Virus record (IMG/VR): IMGVR_UViG_3300025849_003344
Length of the DNA stretch: 64,000 nt
Origin: a virus
Taxonomy: Duplodnaviria > Caudoviricetes
Reading direction: 5' to 3' (one strand)
The position numbers and the translations under genes are program-made. Below are positions 13,729 to 30,114 of this stretch, one piece after another (position 1 is the first letter of the stretch; each line of letters opens with the position of its first letter). The notes under the pieces are model-generated. The model was not told where the DNA came from and did no database searches. It worked only from the letters and a program-made list of their open reading frames with translations.

Positions 13729-14481
13729 TTAACCTACATAAAATGATGGTGGAAGTTCTTGCTCTAATCTTAAACGCTCTTTAAGCTGTTCAATATCACC
13801 TGTAGCATCTTCGTATATTTGACGGCCGTTAAGTGATACTCCGCCTGGGAGTTGCATACCTTCAAACTTAATAAGGTTTGCTCCCCATTGTTGTTTAATT
13901 AGCGCAGTCGTATAATCTTTAATAAACATATCATTGTATATTGAAGTATGTGTTTGAGGATCTATGGTCTGATAAACCTCAGCTACGATATAATCTCCGG
14001 CTTTAATATCTTTATCTTGGAAATCACCGTGAACATACAACCTGTTTTGTCTCCGAGCAAACGTGACTTGAGGCGTTCCGTTAAGCTTCATATCGAGCAT
14101 TGATAGATATTGTTGAGTTTGCTCGTAATATGCAATTCCACCAACAACCGAATTAAGATCCCACATGTCATTAAGCATTAATTGATATTTGACGTCAAAG
14201 AAGTTTCTTGATGCTGATGACGTGTGAATAGGAAAAAGTCTAGCGATATATATAATATTAGAACTAATGGGAATATATTCATTAGTCACATCGTCAGCAG
14301 TAACTAAGTGTTTAAAATATGTTTTAACTGTAGCATCTGAATGATATTCTTGATAAAGCTGGATAGCCTCATCAACTCTGTCTTCCAGTTGATCTTCGTC
14401 TACGTTAATTTCGATAACCGGATCACCTAGCTTTCGCTTACAGTATTCGATCAATGTGTCTCTACTATTAGGAGAAGCCAT
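13729..14481 (-). CDS. gp13: Neck protein gp13
   Basis: RKLGDPVIEINVDEDQ and KQQWGANLIKFEGMQLPGGVSLNG motifs. Confidence 0.95.
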   Translation of the reverse strand: MASPNSRDTLIEYCKRKLGDPVIEINVDEDQLEDRVDEAIQLYQEYHSDATVKTYFKHLVTADDVTNEYIPISSNIIYIARLFPIHTSSASRNFFDVKYQLMLNDMWDLNSVVGGIAYYEQTQQYLSMLDMKLNGTPQVTFARRQNRLYVHGDFQDKDIKAGDYIVAEVYQTIDPQTHTSIYNDMFIKDYTTALIKQQWGANLIKFEGMQLPGGVSLNGRQIYEDATGDIEQLKERLRLEQELPPSFYVG

Positions 14482-14522: not shown

Positions 14523-14552
14523 GTTTACAACAATGCTAAAATGTGGTATAAT
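14523..14552 (+). promoter_or_regulatory. T4-early-like sigma70 promoter (GTTTACA-N17-TATAAT, with TGTGG before the -10)
   Basis: TTTACA at 14524-14529, 17-nt spacer, TATAAT at 14547-14552. Confidence 0.8.
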
Positions 14553-14557
14553 CAACT

Positions 14558-14959
14558 ATGAAAACAGTATTTACAAACGGATGCTTTGATATTTTGCATC
14601 GAGGCCACCTAGATTATCTAGAAAGATCAAGAAATCTAGGTGATAGACTAATAGTTGGCATAAATTCTGATGAGTCTATACGAAGACTTAAAGGCAATTC
14701 AAGGCCAATTAATAATGAAGAAGATAGAAGATATATGTTACAATCATTGCGGTTTGTAGATCATGTATACATATTCTACGAAGACACGCCGTATGAACTA
14801 ATTAAACAATTAAAACCAGACGTACTTACTAAGGGTGGTGATTACCAAATTGACCAAATTGTAGGAAGAGACATAGCAAAATTAACCGTCTCACTAAAAT
14901 TACGTGATGGTTATTCTACTACTAATATTATTAAAAGGATTTGTGATGGCACGGCTTGA
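14558..14959 (+). CDS. rfaE2: Heptose-1-phosphate adenylyltransferase (HldE C-terminal domain / RfaE2)
   Basis: FTNGCFDILHRGH (HxGH), GINSDESIRRLKG.SRPIN, KGGDY and GYSTT motifs. Confidence 0.9.
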   Translation: MKTVFTNGCFDILHRGHLDYLERSRNLGDRLIVGINSDESIRRLKGNSRPINNEEDRRYMLQSLRFVDHVYIFYEDTPYELIKQLKPDVLTKGGDYQIDQIVGRDIAKLTVSLKLRDGYSTTNIIKRICDGTA

Positions 14960-15305
14960 AGGAATGGTAGAAAAAGGATGGGGCCACGAACTTATTTTTG
15001 CTACTAACGATAAGTATTGTGGTAAGCTTTTAAATTTTAATAAGGGTGCTAAATTCTCTATGCATTTTCATGCAATAAAGGATGAGACTTGGTTAGTGTT
15101 TGAAGGCATATTTGACGTTTTAACTATAAACACTATTGATGCATCTGTTAAAAAACAAAGATTAAAAGCCGGAGATTCACTTAGAATTGAGCCACTTGTT
15201 CCGCATCAGTTATTTTGTATCGAAGAAGGTACTATAATTGAAGTGTCCTCGCCAGACTCAGTTGAAGATAACTATAGAGTTGCTAAAGGCGACAGCCAAA
15301 AATGA
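14946..15305 (+). CDS. Cupin-fold protein (sugar isomerase/epimerase-like)
   Basis: EKGWGHE, SMHFHAIKDETW, PLVPHQL and EVSSPD cupin motifs. Start moved to ATG 14946. Confidence 0.7.
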   Translation: MARLEGMVEKGWGHELIFATNDKYCGKLLNFNKGAKFSMHFHAIKDETWLVFEGIFDVLTINTIDASVKKQRLKAGDSLRIEPLVPHQLFCIEEGTIIEVSSPDSVEDNYRVAKGDSQK

Positions 15306-16180
15306 TAATATGGGGTATGGTAGGAGGTTGCCATGATGCCACAATTTCAATTTTTAAAGATAGCACATGTGTTAAGACATACTATTCAACTGAAAACATA
15401 CATAGCCAAAGTTTAATAGATAAAGCTTTTAAGTATGGCAAACCAGACTTAGTTGTATGGTACGAAAAACCTTGGGCTAAGGCAATACGCCAATGGTTAG
15501 TTGGTCAGCCTAAACCATTTAAGCGTAATAATATCCGTAAGTATTTGCGGGGGCTAGGAATAACCTGTAAATATAGAACCGTATGGCATCACGAATCTCA
15601 CGCAGCTCATTACTATAAGACTGATAAAACTCCTAGCGTAATAGTTGTCATAGATGCAGTCGGTGAATTTAGTTGTACGTCTATATGGACAACTGAGAAT
15701 GGTAAGCTTACACAAAGAAAATCAGTTAAATATCCTAATAGCCTAGGTCTATTTTATTCTTCTATGACTCAAAGATGTGGATTTAAACCGTCAGTCGATG
15801 AAAGTAAATTAGAAAAGTTCGGCAAGGGATATGCCACCGATTTAGTGATAGATAGCATATATAAGGATTTAGTGTTCAAAGAATGCTCAGAGCCATTATT
15901 TAAAATTAATATGCATAGAGGCATAGGTAATTGGAAACCATCTTATGACAAAAAAGAAATTGCCGGTTCAACCCAAGTTGTATTTGAAAATTTGTGTCGT
16001 AATTTAATAGAATACGCAATAAGCAAATACGACAGACCACGATTAATTGTTACAGGTGGATGTGCATTTAATAAGGGTTTACAAAAAATATTACACGAAG
16101 AATATAATGCATATATTCCAGAAAATCCAGGAGACGCCGGATCTGCAGAAACTGCGGTATTAGCGTATTTAAATAGATGA
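15302..16180 (+). CDS. Carbamoyltransferase N-terminal (Kae1-like) domain only
   Basis: [38 protein letters not shown] and PGDAGSA motifs. The C-terminal domain is absent. Confidence 0.75.
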
Positions 16181-17382
16181 TTGATATTACTCCATTCTCT
16201 ACCACGATAAGCAAAGCTAAAGAAGAAGGAAAATACCGAGTGTTCAACGATATTATTCGTGAACGAGGTAAGTTTCCTAAAGCAATTTGGTATGGTAAAT
16301 ACGCTATTAAAGAGATAGTTAATTGGTGTAGCAATGACTATTTAGGTATGGGTCAACACAAAGTTGTAATTGATGCTATGCATACAGCCCTAGATCAAAC
16401 AGGCGCGGGCTCAGGAGGCACTAGAAATATATCTGGTACTTCGCACTATCATGTAGCCTTAGAACATGAAATAGCTAAACTACATAAAAAAGAATCTGCA
16501 TTACTGTTCTCAAGTGCGTTTGTTGCAAATGAATGGTCACTTATAGCGTTGTCTCGCATCAATAAGAATATATGTTGGGTAAGTGATAGCAAAAACCATG
16601 CAAGTCTCATTCAAGGTATGAGACATAGTAGATGTGAGATCTTTAAGTTTGAGCATAATAATTTAATGGATCTTGATATTAAATTAGAACAAGCTACACT
16701 AGCCGGCTTTACTCCATGTATTGTCTTTGAATCAATTTATAGTATGGACGGAGATATTTCAGATATTGATGCTATATGTGATTTAGCTGAAAAGTATGAA
16801 GCCATAACATATATCGATGAAGTACACGGTGTTGGTTTATACGGTGATAGTGCAGCAGGCAAGCTTGATGAGCTTGGTTTAGAAGACCGAGTTGATATTG
16901 TAAATGGCACTTTAGGTAAAGCTTATGGTGTAACCGGTGGTTATATTGCTGGTAATAGAACTGTTATCGATGCTATAAGGTTAGAAGCAAGTGGTTTTAT
17001 TTTTACTACAAGTATTTCACCAGTTATATGTGCTGGTGCATTGGCTAGTATTAAATATCTTAAAGATCATCCTGACCTCAGAGCCCAACATCAAGCCAAT
17101 GCACAATCATTGAAGCAAGAATTTATAGCAAGAGGAATAGAGGTATTAGAAAAGTCTTGCACCCATATTGTACCTGTTATGATACGTGATGCTGAACTAG
17201 CAAAGGCTATATCAGATAGATTACTAAATGAGCATGGCATTTACGTTCAGGCTATTAACTATCCAACGGTTGCTGTCGGAGAAGAGCGATTGAGATTTGC
17301 ACCAACACCACTTCATACAAATGCTATGATAGAAGAATGTGTTGATGCATTAGAAGAATCAATTAACTATTTCAGGAAATAA
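16177..17382 (+). CDS. alaS: 5-aminolevulinate synthase (Shemin/C4 pathway, PLP-dependent)
   Basis: [46 protein letters not shown] (PLP Lys), FIFTTS and [10 protein letters not shown] motifs. Confidence 0.92.
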
Positions 17383-18012
17383 ACATTCGTCAATATATTC
17401 CCGAACACGTTTAGGATCTACGCCTAAAGTCTCCATCACCCTTGGTGTATGGGGATTTTTCTTTTGGTTTTTACAGTACCAATTGTGTTGAGTTGTATAA
17501 TCTTTATCGCTTTCTTCACCAATAGCAGTCAGATAATATTCTAGATTAGTTATGGCTAATTCTAGAATGTCGTCTAATTCTTGTCCGTCTCTAACATTAC
17601 CGGCTGATACCATAGAATCGCTAAATATATTTCTTGCCCACTCAGGTAATTCTCTGCGTTTTGATGGAATAAAAGGTTTTACATTCTCTTTGAACTGTGT
17701 TAATATAGGGTTATCAAATGCTACTGGACTGAAATCATGGAAGGCACCAGTAACTTTGTTAGGACCAGCAATTATATCGAAGCCGTAAATAGGTGACGGA
17801 TCGCTAACTTTCGGATATATGCATAGATGCATCATCCATAGCTTACGATCGAGCCTTGCATCAATGATGTCTAGGTCGGCTCTACGATATACCCCTGGAT
17901 TCTTATAAGTAATTGCTGGCCAGTCAAAAGGATGTTGAGAGTTGCTAACAGAGTTATCTTCTAATATTCTCTGCATCCTTTTGCTGGCGGCAATTAACTT
18001 ATCAAAGACCAA
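17359..18012 (-). CDS. pcyX: Ferredoxin-dependent bilin reductase, PcyX/PcyA-like
   Basis: MMHLCIYP...GFDII (His62/Asp79, spaced like PcyA His88/Asp105), [17 protein letters not shown] and [11 protein letters not shown] motifs. The subfamily call is tentative. Confidence 0.8.
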
Positions 18013-18601
18013 AACGTTTTTCCAAATCTGAGAATAATCTCATAGCGTATTCGAAGCATGAAATAGCATCATCGCCCATAGACTTATCTAATAGAGTTCT
18101 AAATTCTTTTATAAGCTCCGGACGATTTTCAAATATATATGTGCTTTGATATACTTCAGGACATTCTTCCCATAGCTTTACGTCAGTTTCGGAATTAACT
18201 GCGGCTTCACAATATGGTTCTGGTAGATTCTTTCTAATAATCTGACCACCATACATATCGCCAAAGTGCCTAACGTACATATGTGCAATGACTTCAGCTT
18301 CTGATGCATATGATATATAGTCTATATAATCTAGTGTAGCAGGTTCTAAACCAATATCATGTTCATAATAAGCTAAATCTCCGCTCATCGCAAGTGTGCG
18401 TCTTATACCATAAAAAATAGGATACTTTTTGAAAAAACCTAATTCGAAAGCTCTATTTTCTAATGCAGAATAAATTTGCAATTGATTATAAAGATATTGA
18501 CCATATTGGTTTCTTGTCATATTACCAGAAACTAATAATTTAGACCACTTCATTTCTTCTGCTTCTTTATGTATTGAAGCAGTCAACAGTTTTAAAGACA
18601 T
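18002..18601 (-). CDS. hemO: Heme oxygenase
   Basis: LTASIHKEAE (proximal His), IYSALE and AHMYVRHFGDMYGGQ motifs. Start moved to ATG 18601 (GGAG ribosome-binding site). Confidence 0.88.
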   Translation of the reverse strand: MSLKLLTASIHKEAEEMKWSKLLVSGNMTRNQYGQYLYNQLQIYSALENRAFELGFFKKYPIFYGIRRTLAMSGDLAYYEHDIGLEPATLDYIDYISYASEAEVIAHMYVRHFGDMYGGQIIRKNLPEPYCEAAVNSETDVKLWEECPEVYQSTYIFENRPELIKEFRTLLDKSMGDDAISCFEYAMRLFSDLEKRFGL

Positions 18602-18633
18602 AAATAACTCCATAATGTTATATAATAGATTGG

Positions 18634-18641
18634 TATTTATA
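18634..18641 (-). promoter_or_regulatory. Late promoter TATAAATA upstream of hemO-pcyX
   Basis: Exact motif in the intergenic region, 32 nt upstream of the hemO ATG. Confidence 0.7.
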
Positions 18642-18643
18642 CT

Positions 18644-19564
18644 ATGATTCATGTGATAGGCGATCTCATCATCGATGAGTACTGGTATGGAGATACATCA
18701 CGTATCTCACCAGAAGCCCCTGTACCAATAGTAGAATTAAATAGTAAAAAGATTTCATTGGGTGGTGCTGGTAATGTATATATGAATATACGTGGCATGA
18801 CCAATCAAGTTACACTAGATGCTTATTATAGCAAAGATTTTCAGTACATATTCGATGATATTGCTGTGACTGGTAATCTATTATCAATAGAAAGCATGCC
18901 ACATAAGCTCCGCATCTTCTCTGGTTCACATTATGTATCGAGAATTGACGCAGAAAAAAGAATAGAAAATAACGATGTACAAGATAAATTCTTTGTACCA
19001 AATCAATATGACGTAGTTGTACTATCCGATTATAATAAGGGAACTGTAAAAGATCCTCAGAAAATTATTAAAAAATCGAAAAGAACTATAGTCGATCCAA
19101 AGGTTTCATTAAACAGATATAGAGGCGCTTTTATATTAAAGCCAAATCTTAAAGAATTCGAAGACTATGTAGGTAAAACATTAACTCCTAAGCAGTTAAT
19201 GTCAGAAGCACAGCGAGTAAGAAATGAACTTGATATTCATCATTTCATTGTCACTCTTGGTGCAGATGGTGTACTATATGTTGGAGATACCATTGAACAC
19301 TATGCGGCTACCGCACAAGAGGTGTTTGATGTTACAGGTGCTGGAGATACTTTTACCGCTGCGTTAGCTTTCGGTATATATAATAATCTGCCAGTTCAAG
19401 ATGCCGTGATTATAGCAAATAAAATGTCGGGGTTAGCAGTAGCCACTTCAGGAACATATGCTATACAACAAAATCATTTTAATGAAGCGATGGATGAAAT
19501 CAATGAATATATTAATAACAGGCCACAAGGGCTTTATCGGGAAGAATCTTTGGCTTTACTTTAA
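18644..19564 (+). CDS. rfaE1: Heptose-7-phosphate kinase (HldE N-terminal domain / RfaE1, PfkB family)
   Basis: VIGDLIIDEY.YG...RISPEAPVP, GGAGNV, SDYNKG, VDPK, PNLKEF and DVTGAGDTF motifs. Confidence 0.92.
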   Translation: MIHVIGDLIIDEYWYGDTSRISPEAPVPIVELNSKKISLGGAGNVYMNIRGMTNQVTLDAYYSKDFQYIFDDIAVTGNLLSIESMPHKLRIFSGSHYVSRIDAEKRIENNDVQDKFFVPNQYDVVVLSDYNKGTVKDPQKIIKKSKRTIVDPKVSLNRYRGAFILKPNLKEFEDYVGKTLTPKQLMSEAQRVRNELDIHHFIVTLGADGVLYVGDTIEHYAATAQEVFDVTGAGDTFTAALAFGIYNNLPVQDAVIIANKMSGLAVATSGTYAIQQNHFNEAMDEINEYINNRPQGLYREESLALL

Positions 19565-20330
19565 AAGTAAGGGTCATAATGTAGAAGGTTGGGAGTATGG
19601 AGATACGCCTGAACTTCTATTGCATAAAGGTATAGATTTAGTAATTCACTGCGGTGCTATTAGTAGCACTACAGAAACCAATGCTGAAAAGCTTATGGAA
19701 ATGAATTATGAATTTACTACTGATCTAATTGTTAAATGTCTTGAGATGAATATTGACATTCAATACGCATCATCAGCATCTGTATATGGCAATAGTAAAA
19801 CGTTTAAAGAGGGTGATGATTGTCATCCAATGAATGGTTATGCATGGAGCAAATATCTTGTCGATAGGTTTGTCGCAGAAACCTTAGCGATGGGTTCATT
19901 GCCAATTAACATTCAAGGTTTTAGATATTTTAATGCCTATGGTAAGTTCGAAGGTAATAAAGGAAATCAAGCGTCTCCTGTTACAAAGTTTAAGCTTCAA
20001 GCTGTTACTGATGAATCTATAATGTTATTTGAAAATTCTACTGAGTATAAGAGAGATTTTGTATGTGTTGACGATATATGCGAAGTGCACGAAAAAATGA
20101 TCGACGTAGATGTATCAGGAATATTTAATGTCGGTACTGGTAATGCGGTTAGTTTTGCTGCGGTTGGAGAAGCTATTGCTACCAAATATGGTGTAACTAT
20201 TAATCATATTGCTATGCCAGATCAACTTAGAGGCAGTTACCAAACATTCACTGAAGCAAACATTGATCAGCTGTCAAAACACATTGATATGAAATGGACT
20301 AACGTATTGGATTATATTAATGGCATTTAA
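19503..20330 (+). CDS. hldD: ADP-L-glycero-D-manno-heptose 6-epimerase
   Basis: TGHKGFIG, HCGAISSTTE, YASSASVYG, NGYAWSK, RYFNAYG, RDFVCVDD and YQTFTEA motifs. Start moved to ATG 19503. Confidence 0.85.
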   Translation: MNILITGHKGFIGKNLWLYFKSKGHNVEGWEYGDTPELLLHKGIDLVIHCGAISSTTETNAEKLMEMNYEFTTDLIVKCLEMNIDIQYASSASVYGNSKTFKEGDDCHPMNGYAWSKYLVDRFVAETLAMGSLPINIQGFRYFNAYGKFEGNKGNQASPVTKFKLQAVTDESIMLFENSTEYKRDFVCVDDICEVHEKMIDVDVSGIFNVGTGNAVSFAAVGEAIATKYGVTINHIAMPDQLRGSYQTFTEANIDQLSKHIDMKWTNVLDYINGI

Positions 20331-20964
20331 CATGTGGGGCGAAGAATCTTCGGCTGATATTCAGCAAGGTTCTCCTGATCAGCTATTAGATAGATCTCAA
20401 TTGAATAAGAAATATACTAAGCCACTTATTGCTATCGACCGTGATGGTGTTTTGATTGAATGTAAGGATGGAATTAAAACTAGAGATAGGTTTATCCCTA
20501 TCGAAGGTTCACTTGCGGCTGTCTCTATGATTAGGGCTAAAGGATATAAGCTAGCTGTCATCTTTGACCAACCAGGCATCTCTAGAGGTGAACTAACTAT
20601 TGATGAAGTAGAAGATATGAACAACTATATGATTGAGTTGTTCGGTGATGTTGGGTGTCCTAGTATAGATGGCGTGCTCTATAACATGTCTGATTCTAAA
20701 GATGATATGTATGCTAAGCCAAAAACAGCAATGTTAAAACGATTGCGCGATGAGTTTCGTGTTCCTATCAAAGGCGGATATTATGTTGGCGATAGGTTGG
20801 TTGATGCTAAGATGGCAGACAAAGCTAATCTTAAACCAATATTAGTTAAAACCGGCAAATACAGCGAAGATGAGAAAAAGTTTAATAGCTTTGCTAATAG
20901 ACCTCTTAAGAAGAAGACTAAAGTTTATAATAACCTATTAGACTTTGCAGAATCTTTATTATAA
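20320..20964 (+). CDS. gmhB: D,D-heptose-1,7-bisphosphate phosphatase (HAD family)
   Basis: IAIDRDGVL, DQPGISRG, KPKTAML and YVGDRLVD motifs. The usual Zn-binding cysteines are not seen. Confidence 0.8.
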   Translation: MAFNMWGEESSADIQQGSPDQLLDRSQLNKKYTKPLIAIDRDGVLIECKDGIKTRDRFIPIEGSLAAVSMIRAKGYKLAVIFDQPGISRGELTIDEVEDMNNYMIELFGDVGCPSIDGVLYNMSDSKDDMYAKPKTAMLKRLRDEFRVPIKGGYYVGDRLVDAKMADKANLKPILVKTGKYSEDEKKFNSFANRPLKKKTKVYNNLLDFAESLL

Positions 20965-21001
20965 AAAAAGTAAAAAAACGCATTTAATTGCAAATTAACT
21001 G

Positions 21002-21030
21002 TGTACAAGACTTCTCAAATGTATTATTCT
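21002..21030 (+). promoter_or_regulatory. Sigma70-like early promoter (TGTACA-N17-TATTCT), second copy
   Basis: Matches 1745-1773, including the spacer ends (agactt...atgtat) and a downstream AGAAACA. Confidence 0.7.
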
Positions 21031-21065
21031 AATTATAGAAACAAGATAACAAGAGAGAGATCAAA

Positions 21066-21335
21066 ATGAACAACTTTAAATCAGTATGGTGTGACATTGA
21101 ACTTCCAGCAACTCTTAAAGCTAACTCTCGTATAGCGTATACATTCATCAATGGTGAAGATGCAAATGGATATACATTTGCCGAAGTTTCTACATTCCTT
21201 ACTACAGCTGATCAAATTGGTGTTCAAACTGCGGTTGACTCTCTTATCGCTCAGTCAGGCGATGAGCATCATGTCTTTATTGAAGACTTAGAACTTAACA
21301 AAGACGGTTCTTTTGATGTTTGGTTGGGTTCTTAA
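21066..21335 (+). CDS. Acidic hypothetical protein (89 aa)
   Basis: Own promoter, purine-rich ribosome-binding region and a terminator downstream. Confidence 0.75.
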   Translation: MNNFKSVWCDIELPATLKANSRIAYTFINGEDANGYTFAEVSTFLTTADQIGVQTAVDSLIAQSGDEHHVFIEDLELNKDGSFDVWLGS

Positions 21336-21365
21336 AAAAAGCCGGACAAACTAATGTCCGGCTTT
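21334..21365 (-). terminator. Intrinsic terminator, probably bidirectional
   Basis: A7-GCCGGAC-N8-GTCCGGC-TTT between convergent genes. Confidence 0.8.
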
Positions 21366-21385
21366 AATTCTAAGAGGTGCATCTC

Positions 21386-23197
21386 TTAATTTGAAACTGT
21401 GATAAGCTTTCCATGCTCCGGTAAATAAAGATATTCGATATCTGATTTTTCCAAAGTATCGATAGCATGATCAATAGTTTCTACGAGAGGGTCTCCCCCC
21501 AAGTTAAAACTGGTATTAAACACGATAGGTACACCAGTCTTATCTTTGAATGCAGTAATCAAACGATGGTACAAAGGATTTTGTTCCTTAGTAACAGTCT
21601 GAATACGACATGTCCCGTCAATGTGGATGATAGCCGGAATCTTTTCTTCTATTCCTGGTTGACAATTAACCGCGTACATCATGTGCGGTGTCTCATCCAT
21701 TCCGCGTAAATCAAACCATTCGTGTACGTCTTCGGCTAGAATAGATCCAGCAAATGGTCTAAAGTACTCACGGTTCTTTACTAGGTTGACATAATCTTTA
21801 CCATCTTCAAGTGTAGGATCGAATAGAATAGATCTGTTTCCAAGCGCCCGTGGTCCATTCTCAGAACGACCTTGGAAGACAGTTACGATGTTCTTACTTG
21901 TAATAAGATCAACTATGTCTTTATCGTTAGCATCTTTCATTACAGCCGTATCACTCTTTGTTACGGCCAATGCAATATCATCAATAGTATAATTGTGATC
22001 TGGACCCAAATACAAAGTATTAAGATCTCTATTAGTTTCGTCGTCAGTGCGAGCATGCCAATACATTAGGGCTGCACCCATCGCGGTACCGGCATCATTA
22101 GAAATCGGTTCTACATAAATGTTAATCCCTTCATCTTTAAGCGCATCAAGATATGCATAGTTTGCCACACAATTAAGACCATAGCCACCAGAGATCACTA
22201 CATTCTTTGTGTCGCCCATCTCTACGGCTTTTCGGATCAGTTTAACCATTTGAGCTTGAGACTGAGTTTGAATAGCATATGCCATATCTCTTCGAGAATC
22301 AAGCTTAGTAACATCTCCATCTACGGCTTCATATTGTTCTGCATTTGCTTGCAAGAATTTATAGAATCCGTCATTCACAAATGCACCGTTAGGAACATTT
22401 GGAATAAAAAGATTTCTATCAAATACGCCAGGATGTGGTGAACGAGGATCAAACAAATTATCTAGGTCAGAGTTCTCATTACCATATGGAAATAATCCCA
22501 TAGTTTTGCCGGCTTCTATTGGTTGCCAACCACAGTATTGCGTAACAGCCTCATATGTTTTAGTGATACCACCACGGTCTGAAATCATAACTTCAAACTC
22601 GCCTTCTTCACCAAATTGCTCACCACTAAATGATGCGTCAGCACCAACTAATGGATCTCTGCAACCCAGGTGTTTGTACATGGTCTTAAAGTTTGCGGGG
22701 TAGGACGCCGTAATGATAGATTCATATTCCCATAGCGCAAGACCTTCCCCTGTATTTGGGTTTGAAACCGGGATCATTGAACCGGCACCATCAGCAATAA
22801 GTGCTACTGCTTCCTCAAATGGAGACCTATAGAATGCTACAGCAGCATGTAATTTATGGTGCTGCTGAGACATATCGATAACTTGTGGATGCGCCTGCGT
22901 CTGAATGTTTTGATCTATCAATCCAAGCTTTCTAGCAAGCCCGGTGTACACATCTTCGCCAGAAAAATCTACTTTACCAGCAGTTTCCTGAAGTGATTGA
23001 GTGTGTGCTACTACCAAATAATCAAGCTTATCGGTATAATCAAGAATTTTTACCATTCCTGCATATGGACCACCGTCATATTTTCTGCGAGAAAGCCGTT
23101 CTTCCTCAATAGAAAATACAATTTCACCGTTTTTTAGTAGACATACACCAGCATTATGCCCTCTAGCAATACCTGCAATCCAAATATCATTTTTCAT
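21386..23197 (-). CDS. O-carbamoyltransferase (NodU/CmcH/TobZ family), full length
   Basis: GHNAGVCL, EEERLSRRK, HHKLHAA, GKTMGL, SGGYGLNC, NDAGTAMG, GPRALGNRSI, REYFRPFA, DGTCRIQTV and NTSFN motifs. Start moved to ATG 23197. Confidence 0.92.
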   Translation of the reverse strand: MKNDIWIAGIARGHNAGVCLLKNGEIVFSIEEERLSRRKYDGGPYAGMVKILDYTDKLDYLVVAHTQSLQETAGKVDFSGEDVYTGLARKLGLIDQNIQTQAHPQVIDMSQQHHKLHAAVAFYRSPFEEAVALIADGAGSMIPVSNPNTGEGLALWEYESIITASYPANFKTMYKHLGCRDPLVGADASFSGEQFGEEGEFEVMISDRGGITKTYEAVTQYCGWQPIEAGKTMGLFPYGNENSDLDNLFDPRSPHPGVFDRNLFIPNVPNGAFVNDGFYKFLQANAEQYEAVDGDVTKLDSRRDMAYAIQTQSQAQMVKLIRKAVEMGDTKNVVISGGYGLNCVANYAYLDALKDEGINIYVEPISNDAGTAMGAALMYWHARTDDETNRDLNTLYLGPDHNYTIDDIALAVTKSDTAVMKDANDKDIVDLITSKNIVTVFQGRSENGPRALGNRSILFDPTLEDGKDYVNLVKNREYFRPFAGSILAEDVHEWFDLRGMDETPHMMYAVNCQPGIEEKIPAIIHIDGTCRIQTVTKEQNPLYHRLITAFKDKTGVPIVFNTSFNLGGDPLVETIDHAIDTLEKSDIEYLYLPEHGKLITVSN

Positions 23198-24149
23198 TTT
23201 TAGCACCCTTTGAAATAACCATATCAAGTTCTTTAGCAATCTCATTGATTGCGCCTTCAGATAGCATCATAATACCTTCATGTGCCATAGAAATTTCTTC
23301 TTCAAAAGAAATACGGATAGGATCATATTTACGGCGATCATGGCCAAGATCCAACACCTGAAAAATATCATTGTCTGGGTAACTTACATTTTCTTGATAT
23401 GTTGATCCTAATACAGTTACTGCCGGAGTTTTGGTTGAATATGCAAAGTGTTGTCCTACACTGTCACAGCCCAAGAAACCATTTGCAGCTTTAATTGCTG
23501 ATGCCCAAATACGTAATGGAGCACCTTCTGGTTGAGCAACGGGTTCAGTAATACCGTGCTGAGACCAATCACCTTGAAATTCAGAAAATAATACGACTGC
23601 ATATTTTTTCTGTAATTTTTTTATTAATTTAATCGTATCGTTTAATCCAAATGACCTACCACCACTATCAACTAGGTGTTGACCTTTACTACCCATAGGC
23701 TGCGTACTACGCCCATATGGTTGGAATACAATTACTTTTTCTTTTTTAGTTTTTTCACGAACTTCATCGATTATATCTTGACCTTGAATCAGTTCTGCAG
23801 CAGTTAAGTATAGAGTAGGATCTGGTAGATCACGCAAACCTTTATCATTAACCTGGATATCAAAGGCTGAAACTAGATTTGCCTTTTGATTATAGTATTC
23901 CCAAACACGATATGGTTCAGTAGTAACACAATTCCTATCTTTGATTTTATCTTGGAATAGATTTTTGTGCCAGTTATCATATGAACGGGCATGCAAAGTC
24001 GGGTGACCTTTATACATGTCCATACCGCCCTCACAGACAATGATAAAATCATCATCAGGATTTTCGGCTTCATATTTTTCGAATGCTGGGATTGAACAGA
24101 TATGTCGGCCTGCTCCACCGTTTACAAAGAACGCTGTCGATCTTGTCAT
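23187..24149 (-). CDS. GT9-like glycosyltransferase (ADP-heptose:acceptor heptosyltransferase family)
   Basis: N-terminal GGAGRHICSIPA resembles GT9 GIGD...TP. C-terminal LRIWASAIKAANGFLGCDSVGQHFAYSTKTPAVTVLGST resembles GT9 ALI..ADLFIGNDSG.MHLAAA.GTP.VALFGPT. Confidence 0.75.
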   Translation of the reverse strand: MTRSTAFFVNGGAGRHICSIPAFEKYEAENPDDDFIIVCEGGMDMYKGHPTLHARSYDNWHKNLFQDKIKDRNCVTTEPYRVWEYYNQKANLVSAFDIQVNDKGLRDLPDPTLYLTAAELIQGQDIIDEVREKTKKEKVIVFQPYGRSTQPMGSKGQHLVDSGGRSFGLNDTIKLIKKLQKKYAVVLFSEFQGDWSQHGITEPVAQPEGAPLRIWASAIKAANGFLGCDSVGQHFAYSTKTPAVTVLGSTYQENVSYPDNDIFQVLDLGHDRRKYDPIRISFEEEISMAHEGIMMLSEGAINEIAKELDMVISKGAKNEK

Positions 24150-24246: not shown

Positions 24247-24936
24247 TTATCCTTCGTCAGAATCTAATGCTGCGGCAATTGCATCATTAATAACACCCTG
24301 ATCAGAATCTTCGGGTGTAAATCTAAATGTTACTTCATGCGGAAGAAAGCCACCCACAGAATACGCTGAAACTTTATTAATTGCTTCTGTTTGAATGCGT
24401 GTCCATGCTACTGTAAGATCAGAATCCGCAACAACCGCATCTTTTGCTAACCATTCTGTTGCATTTGCAGCAACATTGTTCGCTTGCCTACTAAGTAGAT
24501 TCCAATCAGTCCATGGCTGATGGAATGGATAAGGTTTCTGCCATAACCGCAATGCTGGTGAATAAGTCATAGCAGTTGCTTCATATGCCTTGTGAGGTGG
24601 CAGCGGCCACGGATATTTGTACTCCAATCCATCTGGGCCAGTTTTTGTTCTCAATGATAGATCCATTATATCAGAATCTCTCATTTCCCAAAAAATAGAA
24701 GCTTCTAAAGGTTGTGCCTCAGCGTTAACTAAAACAGCTCCATCTTCATCGCCTTCCGCAACCCACTCATCAAGAGTAATACTTTCTACACCCTCCATAA
24801 TGCCTGCAGGATTAATTTGCACCCTAAGATATGCCGGACCATGATACGTAAAGCTAACCGAGGAATCATTTGAAGCTTCTTGTAATGTATAGTCGTCTGG
24901 CACTTTAAAGCTAAACGTTTTTGTTATGTTTGCCAT
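24247..24936 (-). CDS. Hypothetical protein (229 aa), probably virion or fibre associated
   Basis: Last gene of the fibre operon; contains five DS motifs. Confidence 0.7.
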   Translation of the reverse strand: MANITKTFSFKVPDDYTLQEASNDSSVSFTYHGPAYLRVQINPAGIMEGVESITLDEWVAEGDEDGAVLVNAEAQPLEASIFWEMRDSDIMDLSLRTKTGPDGLEYKYPWPLPPHKAYEATAMTYSPALRLWQKPYPFHQPWTDWNLLSRQANNVAANATEWLAKDAVVADSDLTVAWTRIQTEAINKVSAYSVGGFLPHEVTFRFTPEDSDQGVINDAIAAALDSDEG

Positions 24937-24945
24937 TTTAGTTCC

Positions 24946-26004
24946 TTATGAATAGCTTATTTTTATAAGAGGTGGACCACCAGTAGTAGCACAACAACAA
25001 GTACCGCCACATGTCCAAGTTGAAAGACCGGGCACCCCAGGTATTGTTTGCATATTTTGACACTGTCTACCCATACTTTGCGCAATATGTTTTGTAAATA
25101 TTCCATGGATTTCCGGCATTATATTGCATTGTTTGTACATAGTGTGGCCACCGTTAATCGATGGTTTTTCTTGAAATCCAGAATTCCAATGGTTTAATCC
25201 ACCAGGATATGGAATAAAGTGTTTATCTCCACACCGACCTGCAGCTATATCATTAGTTCCACAGCAACTAAGTTGCATACACGACCACATACCCTTAGAT
25301 CCGAAATCGGCTCCATAGTAATTAGCTCTTCTGTACACATCATTAGCACTGTCTTCCATGGTTCTTTGTACTACATCTTTCATACAAATTGTTTTACAGC
25401 ATGCTACAGCAGCTGTAACAAGGGCGAACCATCGGGAATACCAATTACATCGCACAATTCCAGGAGCACCGCCTTCTGCACAGAAATTTGTAAGACCAGT
25501 ACCAATAATAAAAGCTTTAGGACCGCGCTCACCTCTATGCAAAGGTGCAGTATCAAGTGTGCCAGCAGCCTGGTCAAGCGTCTGTCCAGCAATATTGTCG
25601 TACTGTGAACAGCAAACTTTATCTAAGTCAGTATAACATGCACAATATACATCTCCAGCAGTGACAGAAACCGTTTTAATAGCATGGGCACCAGATCCGC
25701 CATGCAGACCTTGCATACAGCAATGACTGGCGGCACCGCCACCGCCACCGCCCCAAAGTTTAAATGTAGCTCTAGTTACACCTGCCGGAACTACCCATTT
25801 CCATGCTGTATAAGCCGCAACATTAGTAACCGCCCCGCCTGTAACATTACTACCCGCACTATTTACTGTTTCATATCCAGCGTATCTTCCACCACAGCTA
25901 TAATTCAATGGCCAAGTGATTTCGCTTTCTGGGGCCTCATGTGATTCAAGTGGCGATGGTTCGCCTAAGTATTGCCCTAAGAAAACCTGTAATTTTTTAG
26001 CCAT
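24946..26004 (-). CDS. Cys/Gly-rich paralog, type A (copy 2)
   Basis: W.VP.G...WGGGG.G...CC.QG..GGSGA, GLTNFCAEGG and TCGGTCCC motifs; about 22 Cys. Confidence 0.85.
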   Translation of the reverse strand: MAKKLQVFLGQYLGEPSPLESHEAPESEITWPLNYSCGGRYAGYETVNSAGSNVTGGAVTNVAAYTAWKWVVPAGVTRATFKLWGGGGGGAASHCCMQGLHGGSGAHAIKTVSVTAGDVYCACYTDLDKVCCSQYDNIAGQTLDQAAGTLDTAPLHRGERGPKAFIIGTGLTNFCAEGGAPGIVRCNWYSRWFALVTAAVACCKTICMKDVVQRTMEDSANDVYRRANYYGADFGSKGMWSCMQLSCCGTNDIAAGRCGDKHFIPYPGGLNHWNSGFQEKPSINGGHTMYKQCNIMPEIHGIFTKHIAQSMGRQCQNMQTIPGVPGLSTWTCGGTCCCATTGGPPLIKISYS

Positions 26005-27011
26005 TATTCTGCCTCTGCTTCATATCTAATTACAGTAATACCGGACTGTCCGGGTGACCCGCAACAACAGTTACCGCCTGTGACGTTTGCGCCCATCATT
26101 GATGATCCTGCCCACCAGTAATCTCCGAACGCATTCATAGTACCATACGTACAACCTAATGAACAACGATGCATCCATCCACCCTGCCCTGGAGCGCATT
26201 TATAAATACCAGATCTTGCGATCAAACCTTGTCTAAATGCAGAACCTTTCCAGATTGGAGTATAATGCATACGCTGTTTATACGTGTTGTTGCCGGTGGT
26301 TCTATTAACACACGATCCAACTTCATAACCTGCCGGTCCTTGGTATCTACATAAGGTAGCGTCATATCCGGCTTCTTTGCAAGCGGCTGGAGGTGTTTCA
26401 GCATCAGTCGTAAAGCAAAGAGCAGTTACACCGATGGTTGTGCCTTGGCAGCAACACCATTTAAAGTTATTGGTTTGGATATTCAATGCACCATAATTAC
26501 AACAGGCGTTGTTGTAGTCACCATTACATACTGTTGTACCACCACATGCACCAACCGCACATAAATTTTGTTTAATAACAGGACTAGCTTTAGTACCTAT
26601 TAGATGGCATATTCTCCACCCTGCCACTCCGGCCGTCTGAGCGCTTTGCGGGATGCAACATGTATTTGCTGGCCTTTGACATAATTGAATATAATCACTA
26701 TCACCATCAGACCATTGTGGAGTATATTTAAAACTAGCACCATTATAACCCATCATACCTTGCATACAGCAACAAGAACCACCGCCTTGTCCACCATTAG
26801 AAATTGTCCAAAGGTGAGTCTTATCTTTTATATACTTTTTACCTGAATGAGTAGCACACTTGTCGATGAACGTAAACTGGTTCCCATACGCTGATTCGTT
26901 ATTTGCGGTTTCCTCATTCCCCCACGCTGATGAATATATATCTGTATAATATACTAATTCGGGGTTTGCGCGTCCTGCACCAGGTTGAAATGTACTTAAA
27001 TTTTTAGCCAT
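26004..27011 (-). CDS. Cys/Gly-rich paralog, type B (copy 2)
   Basis: Begins MAKNLSTFQPGAGR; ends GGNCCCGSPG...IRY; about 26 Cys. Confidence 0.85.
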   Translation of the reverse strand: MAKNLSTFQPGAGRANPELVYYTDIYSSAWGNEETANNESAYGNQFTFIDKCATHSGKKYIKDKTHLWTISNGGQGGGSCCCMQGMMGYNGASFKYTPQWSDGDSDYIQLCQRPANTCCIPQSAQTAGVAGWRICHLIGTKASPVIKQNLCAVGACGGTTVCNGDYNNACCNYGALNIQTNNFKWCCCQGTTIGVTALCFTTDAETPPAACKEAGYDATLCRYQGPAGYEVGSCVNRTTGNNTYKQRMHYTPIWKGSAFRQGLIARSGIYKCAPGQGGWMHRCSLGCTYGTMNAFGDYWWAGSSMMGANVTGGNCCCGSPGQSGITVIRYEAEAE

Positions 27012-27016
27012 TTATC

Positions 27017-27943
27017 TTATTCCTCGAATGTGTTGCAGCAAGAAAAAGATATTCTAGCTCGGCCTTGGGTATTTGCTGCAGAACAACATGCCGTTGTAAT
27101 GGCACAATCAGTAGGACTTGGAACTCCCCAACCAGCCATTTTACCATATCCGTTTGAGTTACCAGCAGCAGTTCCGCTACCTTCGGTCGCAGACCTCAAA
27201 TGTTTCACTACCCACTCAACTGGAATAGCTTTACAAGAACACCAGGAGTTTGCTATACCGTGAAGGACATGATGTCCACCACATTTATTAATCACTCCAC
27301 CTGGATATGGAACACCTTGTCTGTAGTTAGCCCATTCATTTGGTTCTAGAGCTGAATCCATCAGCTGTATCCATCCTGCACGTCCTCGTGCACCACAATC
27401 TCCTCCAAAATATCTTGCGCCTTCGCCAGCAGAATCTTGAAATACATATTTCAAAGCTGATCCTGTTGCTGTATCACAACACATAGCGACTGCCATACAT
27501 CCTTGTTCGGCACAGAAATTCGTAAGACCAGTACCAGTAACCCAAGAATTAAAATCTGCAACCGTGCATACAGTATGTTTAACAGTATCGCTTCCGCCGG
27601 ATGGTGGTCTTCTGCAATAATGCCATCCCAAATGGACTCGGTAGCACTCACCAGGAACAGTCGTTACCATCTTTGAAACATATGCACCTGAACCAGAAGG
27701 TCCGGGCATTGAGCAATTACATGCTCCAGCGCCATTTCCGCCTGCACCCCAAAGTTCAATCCTTGCACAGGTAATACCTTCTGGAACACACCAAAAGGGT
27801 TCATGTACAAAATTACAACAAGCGTTGTCACCGGGCGGCGTAATGTTTGGCATAAAATCCCAAACACACATAGGATTTAACCCAGTGACTTGAGGTCCAT
27901 TTGCACCGATGGATTTCACAAAATTTGTTAAGTTCTTTGCCAT
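27017..27943 (-). CDS. Cys/Gly-rich paralog, type C (copy 2)
   Basis: Begins MAKNLTNFVKS; WCVPEG...WGAGG and GLTNFCAE motifs; about 23 Cys. Confidence 0.85.
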   Translation of the reverse strand: MAKNLTNFVKSIGANGPQVTGLNPMCVWDFMPNITPPGDNACCNFVHEPFWCVPEGITCARIELWGAGGNGAGACNCSMPGPSGSGAYVSKMVTTVPGECYRVHLGWHYCRRPPSGGSDTVKHTVCTVADFNSWVTGTGLTNFCAEQGCMAVAMCCDTATGSALKYVFQDSAGEGARYFGGDCGARGRAGWIQLMDSALEPNEWANYRQGVPYPGGVINKCGGHHVLHGIANSWCSCKAIPVEWVVKHLRSATEGSGTAAGNSNGYGKMAGWGVPSPTDCAITTACCSAANTQGRARISFSCCNTFEE

Positions 27944-27951
27944 GTCAAATC

Positions 27952-29091
27952 CTATTTATAAGTAATTACTGTTAAGCCAGATCCGCCATAACCGCCGCAG
28001 CAACAAGTGCCACCACAAGTAAATGCCGTCAATCCACCCCAACCAATTGGACCACCACCGTTGTCATAATTATATTTACCACCGCCTATTGGTCCAAGAG
28101 CCATTTGACGATTGGCTGTGCCATGTGGCCCAAATGTATTCCAGTCGTTATCGACGCAGTTTTGATAATGGCTGCTGAAGGTTTGGCCATACTTAACAGA
28201 GGCATCACCTTCCCACCATTTGGCACCACTAATTGCTAGCCATTTTCTATCACCGGCTTGGTTACAGGTCGATGCTTCCCAACAGCCACAGCAACCCGAT
28301 TGATAACATGCATATATGCCCTTAGCTCCGTCATCGCCGCCATAATATCTAGCTCTTCTAAAGAAACCAGCATCACTATCAGTTTCTTGACCTCTAAGAT
28401 CACACATACGAAATGTTTGATTACAACAATTTGGTACACCAAAGCCAGAGTTAAATCCACCGGTTCTTGCAATGCATCGTGTATTAACATTATACAACAT
28501 TTTATAAATGCTTAATCCACCATTACCGCCTTCTGCACAGAAATTTGTAAGACCAGGACCAACAATAGAAACATCAGGACCTCGACAACCACAAAGGCTA
28601 TCAAAGAATTCAGCGCTGGTTGGATCCCAAGTTCCGGTAGTTCCTGGTGCAGTACCAAGACCTGTGCCACCGCCGTCCGCAGCATATTGTGGAGATTGTT
28701 TTGAAGCCGCAGCGCTTGTGCAGTTTCTTGAACCGGCAGTGCCATTAGCAGTTAAACAAATGACATATCTACTTGAGCCCGCAGTAAATCCACTTTTTAA
28801 TGTTTTGGTTACCCACGCACCAGATCCACCGTCAAGGCCTTGTGTACAGCAATAACCTGGAGCACCAGATCCACCACCACCCCATGCATGGAAATTAATT
28901 TCAGTTGTACCTGCCGGAACTTTCCATATAGCTTTTTGACCACCGCCATCTGCGGTACTACCGTGCATTGATGCGTGTGTAGTATTTGGAACGTGCACAT
29001 TATTTGAAAACCACCAAACGTTATCTGATCTACCGTCTTCGGAATAATTACCAGGGGCAATAGGTATAAGGTCTTGTAAATTTTTAGCCAT
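27952..29091 (-). CDS. Cys/Gly-rich paralog, type A (copy 1)
   Basis: WKVPAG...WGGGGSG...CCTQGLDGGSGA, GLTNFCAEGG and TCGGTCCC motifs; about 21 Cys. Confidence 0.85.
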   Translation of the reverse strand: MAKNLQDLIPIAPGNYSEDGRSDNVWWFSNNVHVPNTTHASMHGSTADGGGQKAIWKVPAGTTEINFHAWGGGGSGAPGYCCTQGLDGGSGAWVTKTLKSGFTAGSSRYVICLTANGTAGSRNCTSAAASKQSPQYAADGGGTGLGTAPGTTGTWDPTSAEFFDSLCGCRGPDVSIVGPGLTNFCAEGGNGGLSIYKMLYNVNTRCIARTGGFNSGFGVPNCCNQTFRMCDLRGQETDSDAGFFRRARYYGGDDGAKGIYACYQSGCCGCWEASTCNQAGDRKWLAISGAKWWEGDASVKYGQTFSSHYQNCVDNDWNTFGPHGTANRQMALGPIGGGKYNYDNGGGPIGWGGLTAFTCGGTCCCGGYGGSGLTVITYK

Positions 29092-29115
29092 TATATTTTT
29101 CCATATCTCTTTACC

Positions 29116-30102
29116 TTATTTATACCTAATCGTAACAATAGCTGGCCCGCCCTGTGAACCGCAATAGCAGTTACCACCAGAAGCCCGACCTTGAATACCT
29201 GCATGACCACCAGCGCATATTCCACCAGACCTACCATAGCCATTGCTGCTTCTATTAAAGAGAGTCAGCATGGCGCAACTTGCGCCAGCGCCCGTAAGGT
29301 TATCAGTAAAATTGTCTGCAGCTGCTATATAATGGCTTTGTTTAGTCGCAAATTGTTGAATAGGCATTGCCTTAGTAATAGCACATGCCGAAGCAATTGC
29401 GCCCGCGTTGGTACATGGAGTAATTGAAAATCCAGGGCGTGAATGGAAATGGTTTATGTCAGAATCAAGACCGCCATCGGTTAGTGCAGTATGAGAAGTA
29501 CCAGCAAACTTCATACAGTTATAACATGTGTATCTACTAGTATTATCAATGTTCGTTTTACTAGTCCACTCTTTTGCTGTAGTATTAGGTGATGCATCGT
29601 CAAATCGCGTTTCGCCATTTGCGGTACAACATGTACTCCAATTACAGGTTGCGCAGGCACAAGATGGACCGGCCAGATAAAGATAATTACATCCGGTATC
29701 ACCATTCACAGTTTTGTTGAAGATACATAAACCACACTCTAGCGATCCACCACCTACCGCTGTACAACAAGTACCGGCCGGCATACAGAATTGCCAAACA
29801 TCTCCGGGTGTCATAGTCGGTTCTAAGATTGCTGACGCACCACTATTTCCTGGTGAACCACTCATGCAGCAACATGTGCCACCTGTATTACCACCGACAC
29901 CTCTTATATAAAATACTGCTTTAGTCACACCTTCTGGCACACACCATTGGGACTGTGTCCCACCATAATTTGGTATCCTGGGACCAGGGCCGTATTGGTG
30001 ACACCCGTTTCCGGTTACAAATGTTATTTGACACCAAGCATTTACACCTTCAGGTGAAGGTCTACCTGATCCGGGCTGAAATGTACTTAAATTTTTAGCC
30101 AT
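29116..30102 (-). CDS. Cys/Gly-rich paralog, type B (copy 1)
   Basis: Begins MAKNLSTFQPGSGR; ends GGNCYCGSQG...IRY; about 25 Cys. Confidence 0.85.
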   Translation of the reverse strand: MAKNLSTFQPGSGRPSPEGVNAWCQITFVTGNGCHQYGPGPRIPNYGGTQSQWCVPEGVTKAVFYIRGVGGNTGGTCCCMSGSPGNSGASAILEPTMTPGDVWQFCMPAGTCCTAVGGGSLECGLCIFNKTVNGDTGCNYLYLAGPSCACATCNWSTCCTANGETRFDDASPNTTAKEWTSKTNIDNTSRYTCYNCMKFAGTSHTALTDGGLDSDINHFHSRPGFSITPCTNAGAIASACAITKAMPIQQFATKQSHYIAAADNFTDNLTGAGASCAMLTLFNRSSNGYGRSGGICAGGHAGIQGRASGGNCYCGSQGGPAIVTIRYK

Positions 30103-30114
30103 TCTAGATTTTCC

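Follow-up and report, generated by a model that had tools for sequence, protein, structure and literature searches.

The closest described relatives of the genes considered here belong to the "LPS gene" (lipopolysaccharide gene) cassette of marine cyanomyoviruses, T4-GC 302–308, which comprises PSSM2_307–313 in phage P-SSM2 and SXBG_00216–00222 in phage S-CAM1 (PMC3037559). Sullivan et al. (2010) placed T4-GCs 304, 305, 307, and 308 among these co-occurring LPS genes, and whether they are functional was not known (PMC3037559). In pelagimyophages as well as cyanomyophages, Zaragoza-Solas et al. (2020) described a hypervariable region, the "host recognition cluster," and proposed that it modifies the host O-chain (PMC7029224). 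Here, we analyzed a stretch of 64,000 nt from IMG/VR virus record IMGVR_UViG_3300025849_003344 (hereafter, the window), which is part of an uncultured marine T4-like myovirus, with a focus on a 9.6-kb region (positions 14558–24149) that carries ADP-heptose genes, a gene whose product resembles the heptosyltransferases of glycosyltransferase family 9 (GT9), and a gene for a sugar O-carbamoyltransferase. We propose, with a probability of roughly 50%, that this module decorates a fiber-associated virion protein encoded next door with carbamoyl-heptose.

Judged by its genes, the region is a rearranged member of the published cassette, a gene set that has been annotated in ocean phages since 2005–2010. 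Like the cassettes of S-CAM1 and P-SSM2, it combines fiber paralogues, a phrog_9740 protein, the GT9-like protein, a carbamoyltransferase, an adenylyltransferase, a kinase, a cupin, and an epimerase, and it occupies the same place, between the fiber genes and gp13/gp14. Identities between the cyanophage and window proteins range from 41% to 53% for the GT9-like protein and from 47% to 49% for the carbamoyltransferase. The GT9-like gene is also present in S-CAM3, S-SSM7, and P-SSM5, and the published cyanophage records name its product a hypothetical protein. Unlike S-CAM1 and P-SSM2, the window has its sugar genes inverted onto the other strand and split by a tetrapyrrole insert, a full-length GmhB in place of a 107–114-aa HAD-like protein, and a second, Kae1-only carbamoyltransferase paralogue. 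When the entire 9.6-kb region was searched by megablast, none of 50,697 phage records matched.

Among cellular enzymes, WaaC and WaaF (CAZy family GT9) and Veillonella 3TOV differ from the phage protein, which has an Arg in place of Asp13, an N-domain that is ~45 residues shorter and not basic, a PF01075 score below the threshold, and a family confined to phage contigs. TibC and Aah heptosylate proteins, namely the adhesins TibA and AIDA-I, whereas the phage module is a candidate for protein heptosylation; it also lacks their N-terminal extension of ~90 residues, has an Arg for the catalytic Asp, and includes an added carbamoyltransferase. The LPS core of Pseudomonas contains 7-O-carbamoyl-L-glycero-D-manno-heptose, for which WapO (PA5005) is the putative carbamoyltransferase (PMC8005017). 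As in the phage module, the Pseudomonas cluster encodes GT9 heptosyltransferases together with a NodU-family carbamoyltransferase, a likeness drawn from the description of WapO; unlike the phage module, that system is cellular, and its acceptor is HepII of the lipid A-core. To our knowledge, this carbamoyl-heptose is the only natural one. No relevant paper on phage heptosyltransferases or virion heptosylation was found among the open-access papers searched. Relative to the literature searched, the fiber-linked heptose-carbamoyl reading, the GT9-like clade with Arg for Asp, and the cupin as the first enzyme of the pathway are new.

The GT9-like gene and the carbamoyltransferase gene form a fiber-linked pair

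Two convergent units lie between gp13 and the fiber genes (Table 1), with the sugar genes on the plus strand and the fiber and transferase genes on the minus strand. The initial annotation had placed the enzyme pair downstream of the fiber genes on the minus strand, and we indeed found that it follows six Cys/Gly-rich paralogues and one 229-aa open reading frame (ORF). The 11-nt overlap that had been reported between the GT9-like gene and the gene for the full-length O-carbamoyltransferase holds as well, given an ATG start at 23197 (Met17), which is where the alignments of homologues begin.

We compared the region with the best-scoring 80 of 587 IMG/VR loci, a set that is biased towards relatives of the window and underlies all locus counts given here. 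In every locus with enough flanking sequence (65 of 65), the carbamoyltransferase gene lay downstream of the GT9-like gene, within 2.5 kb and on the same strand. Of 59 loci, 48 had a Cys-rich paralogue upstream, within 5 kb and on the same strand, and 33 encoded a phrog_9740 protein directly upstream of the GT9-like gene. Across these loci, the two enzymes are an obligate pair tied to fiber genes. At least two heptose genes were present at 33 of 56 loci.

Distant homologues of the GT9-like protein (23–27% identity), with the same GxGR and DSxGxH motifs, are found in Aeromonas phage HJ05, between baseplate/fiber-like genes and the tail sheath gene, and in Vibrio phage D505, immediately upstream of the gene for a 1,756-aa tail protein; no carbamoyltransferase or heptose genes were found near either of them. 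With these homologues also situated in tail modules, three unrelated phage lineages show the association with tail genes. The heptose genes resemble an accessory set, perhaps required where the host makes no ADP-heptose; the hosts of the Aeromonas and Vibrio phages presumably make their own. [quoted passage not shown]

A probably complete ADP-heptose pathway with a candidate cupin isomerase in the GmhA slot

The initial annotation assigned a heptose kinase, GmhB, an adenylyltransferase, and HldD to the plus strand, and all four were found there intact, with their catalytic motifs. Specifically, the adenylyltransferase, which is 43% identical to its S-CAM1 homologue, keeps the HRGH (HxGH) motif and scores 176.5 bits against TIGR02199 rfaE_dom_II (cut-off 181.5); the kinase keeps DVTGAGD and scores 231 bits against TIGR02198 rfaE_dom_I (cut-off 345); HldD keeps GHKGFIG (GxxGxxG) and YAWSK (YxxxK) and scores 232.8 bits against TIGR02197 (cut-off 274.6); and GmhB keeps DRDGV. 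All four enzymes fall under the NCBIfam equivalog cut-offs, yet the heptose-specific model is the best match by a wide margin in each case. The HldD ORF spans 19458–20330, with the likely start at 19503 corresponding to Met16 (MNILITGHKGFIG).

No ORF resembling E. coli GmhA (blastp, E-value of 1e-4) was detected in the window and 82 related loci, and no SIS match was obtained among the window ORFs scanned. A small cupin gene, in turn, occurs together with hldC in 45 of 48 loci. Its product has an invariant His, His, Glu, and His at the cupin metal-ligand positions, as well as an invariant N-terminal KGWGxE motif. The predicted structure (predicted local distance difference test [pLDDT] score of 92) has as its top 17 Swiss-Prot fold matches the C-terminal isomerase domain of type II phosphomannose isomerase (PMI)/GDP-mannose pyrophosphorylases (XanB, ManC, RfbM, and AlgA), to which it aligns over the full cupin length (PMI residues ~355–470; TM score 0.79–0.84; root-mean-square deviation 1.4–2.7 Å). 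The PMI domain is singled out by the Swiss-Prot models only, as the Protein Data Bank (PDB) fold matches are generic (quercetinase, oxalate decarboxylase, KdgF, and lyxose isomerase), and the PF01050 match is sub-threshold (19.2 bits versus a cut-off of 23.6; E-value 0.0014). The shared fold aside, the phage cupin differs from AlgA, XanB, and ManC in that it stands alone, at 119 aa.

The type II PMI domain isomerizes fructose-6-phosphate to mannose-6-phosphate, and the homologous reaction on a substrate that is one carbon longer would yield D-glycero-D-manno-heptose-7-phosphate from sedoheptulose-7-phosphate. The cupin, which is not homologous to the SIS-fold GmhA, probably fills the same pathway slot as a sedoheptulose-7-phosphate isomerase. 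The pathway, which had been called near-complete, is better described as probably complete through a non-orthologous isomerase, because a cupin with a PMI-domain fold travels with the adenylyltransferase and the PMI reaction is homologous; no SIS-type GmhA was seen in the 83 loci. In published phages, this cupin carries the GenBank name "cysteine dioxygenase." The GenBank label "phosphoheptose isomerase" in S-CAM1 (L001:15922-16245) and P-SSM2 (L002:16021-16365) belongs to proteins of 107–114 aa that have weak HAD-phosphatase-like matches and no SIS signature; the label looks wrong, and these HAD-like proteins may be minimal GmhB substitutes.

Two carbamoyltransferase paralogues

The full-length carbamoyltransferase matches Carbam_trans_C (PF16861; 195 bits), Carbam_trans_N (PF02543; 97.8 bits), and the NodU model (137 bits), and its HHKLH (HxxxH) metal motif is intact. 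It is 47–62% identical to the cyanophage proteins named "Nol-like carbamoyltransferases," including 49% to the S-CAM1 protein. The 292-aa paralogue keeps an HHESH metal motif and has no YrdC-like domain, the domain that makes carbamoyl-adenylate. Its conservation in the six closest loci (L003–L007, including L004) shows that it is no decaying remnant; it may rely on the full-length protein for activated carbamoyl, or it may transfer something else. Families, motifs, and predicted fold support the claim that the phage encodes the pathway for the donor together with a transferase of GT9 fold and a complete O-carbamoyltransferase for sugars.

The GT9-like protein combines conserved donor contacts with an unusual acceptor side

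The 320-aa protein had no Pfam or NCBIfam match at an E-value of 0.01, and searches of PDB chain sequences with either the single sequence or a 30-sequence profile returned nothing meaningful. Comparison with single WaaC and WaaF sequences by hhalign gave low probabilities (15% and 3%, respectively), with alignments that are consistent with the motifs. The modeled GT-B two-Rossmann fold is closest to solved GT9 structures, and we call the protein GT9-like because of this predicted structure and one short motif. It matches PHROG 8954 (E-value 3e-132), the function of which is listed as unknown. The family comprises more than 2,300 proteins in 90% clusters and 613 clusters at 50% identity. Among 185,579 species genomes, it had just ten matches, all of them on contigs of metagenome-assembled genomes (MAGs), and it is essentially confined to viral contigs.

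Alignment with E. coli WaaC and WaaF by hhalign and MAFFT placed WaaC residues K192, D261, and H266 opposite R169, D233, and H238 of the phage protein, and R169, D233, S234, and H238 are invariant among 30 homologues. In WaaC, K192, D261, and H266 contact the heptose and phosphate of the donor (bioRxiv 10.1101/2021.06.16.448588). Of the top 150 cluster representatives, 125 carry a DSxGxH-type motif by a loose pattern. On the strength of the model and these contacts, the protein probably binds ADP-heptose.

The acceptor side looks different. The N-domain of the phage protein (~115 aa, median net charge −1.5, isoelectric point [pI] 6.1) is ~45 residues shorter than that of WaaC (160 aa, +8, pI 10.0), and most of WaaC 45–110 is gapped in the alignment. 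The model aligns to TibC residues 88–396 only and has no counterpart of TibC 1–87. No four-Cys cluster like the iron finger that supports the dodecamer of the autotransporter enzymes was seen in the alignment, in which the conserved Cys residues are C23, C43, and C232. By these sequence comparisons, the protein belongs with neither the canonical LPS-core heptosyltransferases nor the TibC/Aah type, and its chemistry, if any, must differ at the acceptor side. Predictions of a complex between the carbamoyltransferase and the GT9-like protein scored 0.69 in one run and 0.00 in two others and are given no weight here.

Expression signals

All promoter, late-motif, and hairpin calls reported here are pattern matches only. 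The best sigma-70-like site of the region lies directly upstream of the adenylyltransferase gene, and the total of such sites in the region does not exceed the shuffled expectation. A terminator-like hairpin is positioned where the plus-strand sugar genes meet the minus-strand transferase genes. A second hairpin, with a UACG loop, is followed by an AT-rich sigma-70-like site (CTGAAA-17-TATAAT, 10/12) in front of the GT9-like gene. The region holds more late motifs of the T4 type (TATAAATA) than expected (18 observed versus 7.9), 16 of them on the minus strand. Such motifs stand before gp13 and before two Cys-rich genes; the motif scan of the region found none directly before the GT9-like gene. 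These signals fit early synthesis of the sugar nucleotide, and the timing of the two transferase genes appears ambiguous.

Proposed mechanism and points against it

The reading to which we give about even odds, carbamoyl-heptose decoration of a neighboring virion protein, would proceed in four steps. First, as the families and intact motifs suggest, the plus-strand genes would make ADP-L-glycero-beta-D-manno-heptose from sedoheptulose-7-phosphate through, in order, the PMI-like cupin, the PfkB kinase, the GmhB phosphatase, the adenylyltransferase, and the HldD epimerase. Second, the GT9-fold protein would bind ADP-heptose and transfer heptose to an acceptor other than Kdo2-lipid A, as its fold, donor contacts, and gene linkage indicate. 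Third, the NodU/TobZ-type enzyme, judged by its family, would O-carbamoylate the sugar, as in the 7-O-carbamoyl-heptose of the Pseudomonas LPS core. The fourth and weakest step draws on gene context: the acceptor would be an adjacent virion protein, either a Cys-rich fiber-tip paralogue or the acidic 229-aa protein, which is possibly a chaperone or an acceptor. Released virions would then bear carbamoyl-heptose on their host-recognition apparatus.

Several points weigh against this proposal. The 320-aa protein scores only 11.1 bits against PF01075 (E-value 0.25; cut-off 22), with a match to the DSxGxH motif only; the S-CAM1 and Vibrio D505 homologues reach 22.0 and 24.5 bits, respectively, again through that motif only. 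Moreover, WaaC G12-D13 aligns to G18-R19, so that the catalytic-base Asp is replaced by Arg. D13, which lies at the start of helix 1 of WaaC, has been called strictly conserved in heptosyltransferases (bioRxiv 10.1101/2021.06.16.448588). Arg is found at this position in S-CAM1, in P-SSM2, and in the distant Aeromonas and Vibrio phage homologues as well. Among the top 150 cluster representatives, a strict N-terminal pattern recovered GxGR in 87 and GxGK in 2; of the full-length representatives that it missed, eight more showed G.GR by eye and two had other residues, and none of the N-termini examined had Asp at the base position. Without a catalytic base, the protein might work differently or be no transferase. 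The initial annotation's GT9-like gene is upheld as to fold and donor contacts and not as a standard GT9 enzyme, given the Arg for Asp13 and the shorter, non-basic acceptor domain. The comparison that it had suggested with GT9 (WaaC/WaaF) and Aah/TibC had a similarly divided outcome, with a structural match to GT9, a PF01075 match that is not significant, and no TibC-type N-terminal extension. Nothing in the analysis speaks for the DS-containing peptides that it had named as assay substrates.

The gene neighborhood also provides counterarguments. Fewer than two heptose genes were found nearby at 23 of 56 long-flank loci, so that ADP-heptose is not established as the donor of every member. In favor of the proposal, five large contigs that lack adjacent heptose genes include two with an HldE-like gene (156 bits) a little past the flank. 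Because a hairpin and a sigma-70-like promoter precede it, the GT9-like gene need not be co-transcribed with the late fiber genes. Adjacency to fiber genes fits a role at the host surface too, since the hypervariable "host recognition cluster" gathers many accessory genes (PMC7029224). Finally, the enzyme activities and the glycosylation of virions go beyond gene content, fold, and linkage, from which we infer them.

Alternative readings

The alternative that survives best, which we nonetheless regard as unlikely, is remodeling of the host envelope, whereby carbamoyl-heptose would be placed on the outer core or O-chain of host LPS, on capsule, or on exopolysaccharide, masking receptors and blocking superinfection or the re-adsorption of progeny. 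This is the published reading for LPS-type genes of cyanophages and pelagiphages in this hypervariable region (PMC3037559; PMC7029224), and it agrees with the facts that GT9 enzymes of known function act mostly on LPS, that carbamoyl-heptose is known from the LPS core only (PMC8005017), and that the GT9-like gene is preceded by a sigma-70-like promoter and the sugar genes by one of early type. However, the acceptor domain has neither the size nor the positive charge of the Kdo2-lipid A domain of WaaC, and the catalytic Asp is absent. An LPS-core acceptor in particular is disfavored, because the N-domain is short and non-basic and because cyanobacterial hosts have no Kdo or heptose core (PMC4390846), yet their phages S-CAM1 and P-SSM2 carry the cassette. 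A tight, lineage-independent link to tail fiber genes that extends to Aeromonas and Vibrio phages would be unexpected for a host-surface enzyme, and the family is essentially viral, the ten cellular matches all being MAGs. Gene context favors a virion- or fiber-associated acceptor over the LPS inner core.

The invariant Arg in place of the catalytic base, together with distant homologues in tail modules that have no sugar genes nearby, could also point to a GT9-like protein that is non-catalytic, as with Burkholderia BimC and plant NDH PnsB1, and acts as a fiber assembly or targeting factor or as an ADP-heptose sensor, in which case the carbamoyltransferase and heptose genes would serve another acceptor. 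We consider this improbable: the residues that would contact heptose and phosphate (R169, D233, S234, and H238) are invariant, the DSxGxH-type motif is retained in most of the top representatives (125/150), and linkage to the carbamoyltransferase is obligate (65/65) and to ADP-heptose genes frequent. As for the distant homologues, the hosts of the Aeromonas and Vibrio phages presumably make ADP-heptose themselves.

We attach still less weight to another class of acceptor, an anionic phosphate or carboxylate such as a polyprenyl-phosphate-linked intermediate, a nucleotide, or a small metabolite, which would yield a lipid-linked or soluble carbamoyl-heptoside. Nearly all representatives have R or K at the base position, MurG is among the weaker fold matches, and the glycine-rich loop (NGGAGR) before the Arg appears to resemble the phosphate-binding loops of GT-B enzymes such as MurG. 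Nevertheless, genes for a flippase, a polyprenyl-phosphate transferase, or an oligosaccharyltransferase were not seen in the module, the N-domain is not basic overall, and the idea rests on one residue. DNA glycosylation was set aside, as the family occurs in tail modules of three unrelated lineages and no DNA-modification genes were seen nearby.

Returning to the decoration of a virion protein, a bolder version, which we rate as a long shot, is that the invariant Arg for Asp marks a new GT9-fold mechanistic class that acts on a nucleophile without deprotonating it (S-heptosylation of a Cys thiolate in the very Cys-rich neighboring fiber-tip proteins, or transfer to a carboxylate or phosphate), with the donor made through a cupin-type sedoheptulose-7-phosphate isomerase not described before. 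If true, this version would give the first protein heptosylation system encoded by a virus, with new glycosyltransferase chemistry on a receptor-binding protein.

Neighboring genes and other loci

Judged by its major capsid protein gp23, the phage is nearest to C48C1 (69%), then to Melnitz, a Methylophilales phage (63%), and to cyanophages and pelagiphages (~60%), so that the host is not assignable. An insert at 16177–18652 that encodes 5-aminolevulinate synthase, a bilin reductase, and heme oxygenase divides the sugar genes of the plus strand into two blocks, the first of which also holds the cupin and the Kae1-only paralogue. The synthase was found in the closest relative (L004) only, and heme oxygenase and bilin reductase in seven related loci. 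A late motif (TATAAATA) at 18634–18641 falls just within the annotated heme oxygenase ORF, and the true start is therefore probably further downstream than annotated.

Five of the six Cys-rich paralogues match phrog_4205, and the one at 26004–27011 has no PHROG match. Upstream of them, a 1,323-aa fiber protein (31508–35479) contains three CBM_5_12 carbohydrate-binding modules (75 bits). At 40406–42960, where an earlier call had proposed a cluster of glycosyltransferase, methyltransferase, YbaN, and glycosyltransferase genes, a Pfam search at an E-value of 0.001 identified DUF454 (YbaN-like) in 41284–41700 and gave no match for the three ORFs beside it.

In some relatives, one or two viral-only genes for proteins of 276–308 aa lie between the GT9-like gene and the carbamoyltransferase gene; these proteins have no Pfam match, are not detectable paralogues of the GT9-like protein, and show a weak DUF6071/GDSL (SGNH)-like lead in Atlas. 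In a subgroup of five loci (L056, L057, L059, L060, and L073), the adenylyltransferase match falls in a ~383-aa ORF (L056:13953-15119), a separate kinase was not found, and the sugar cassette is longer, with several unassigned ORFs. The arrangement points to an HldE-like fusion in which the kinase half has diverged.

Table 1. Coordinates of genes and signals in the window and of genes inserted at related loci (prefixed with the locus)
Feature	Coordinates	Strand	Size	Evidence or remark
gp23, scaffold, prohead protease, gp20, gp19, gp18, terminase, gp15, neck protein	2.6–14.5 kb	minus		
gp13	13729–14481			
Sigma-70-like promoter, TTTACA-17-TATAAT, TG extended	14524–14552	plus		11/12 consensus matches, best of the region
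hldC-type D-glycero-beta-D-manno-heptose-1-phosphate adenylyltransferase (predicted)	14558–14959	plus	133 aa	PF01467, 78 bits
Small metal-binding cupin, type II PMI-like	14946–15305	plus	119 aa	Fold and metal ligands
Kae1-like-only carbamoyltransferase paralogue	15302–16180	plus	292 aa	Carbam_trans_N, 62 bits, profile positions 131–344; phrog_1601
5-Aminolevulinate synthase	16177–17382	plus	401 aa	TIGR01821, 538 bits, far over the cut-off of 338
Ferredoxin-dependent bilin reductase and heme oxygenase	17359–18652	minus		
hldA-type D-glycero-beta-D-manno-heptose-7-phosphate kinase (predicted), PfkB family	18644–19564	plus	306 aa	PF00294, 88 bits
hldD-type ADP-glyceromanno-heptose 6-epimerase (predicted)	19503–20330	plus	~275 aa	PF01370, 105 bits
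gmhB-type HAD-IIIA heptose-1,7-bisphosphate 7-phosphatase (predicted)	20320–20964	plus	214 aa	NF006506, 105 bits; TIGR01662, 68 bits
ORF closing the plus-strand block	21066–21335	plus	89 aa	No family match; limited to L004, the closest locus
Bidirectional terminator-like hairpin, GCCGGAC-8 nt-GTCCGGC	21334–21369	unstranded		Flanked by an A run and a T run; read from sequence
Full-length NodU/TobZ-family O-carbamoyltransferase	21386–23197 (ORF 21386–23245)	minus	603 aa from Met17	Kae1-like and YrdC-like domains
GT9-fold, phage-specific heptosyltransferase-like protein, phrog_8954	23187–24149	minus	320 aa	Predicted structure and short motif
Hairpin with UACG loop	24221–24240	minus	8 bp	Just past the stop of the 229-aa ORF
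Acidic protein, phrog_9740	24247–24936	minus	229 aa	pI 4.3, no Cys; between the Cys-rich genes and the GT9-like gene
Six Cys/Gly-rich paralogues	24946–31029	minus	304–379 aa	19–26 Cys each; candidate fiber-tip proteins and candidate acceptors
Inserted viral-only genes	L074:10999-12819			
Inserted viral-only genes	L052:10938-12736			
Inserted viral-only genes	L071:11002-11829			
Inserted viral-only genes	L018:10993-11910			
Inserted viral-only genes	L030:10955-11878			

Implications

The cassette belongs to a phage group that ranks among the ocean's most abundant, and for ~20 years databases have listed its genes under the labels "LPS genes," "hypothetical protein," "cysteine dioxygenase," and "phosphoheptose isomerase," with no function attached. 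Two questions of enzymology can now be tested, namely whether a cupin stands in for GmhA and what a GT9-fold family does without the canonical catalytic Asp. If the module decorates host-recognition proteins, it would represent a type of virion glycosylation that is new for phages infecting Gram-negative hosts. Protein heptosylation would then extend beyond autotransporter adhesins, and the finding would bear on the adsorption and host range of marine phages and on their resistance to proteases and grazers.

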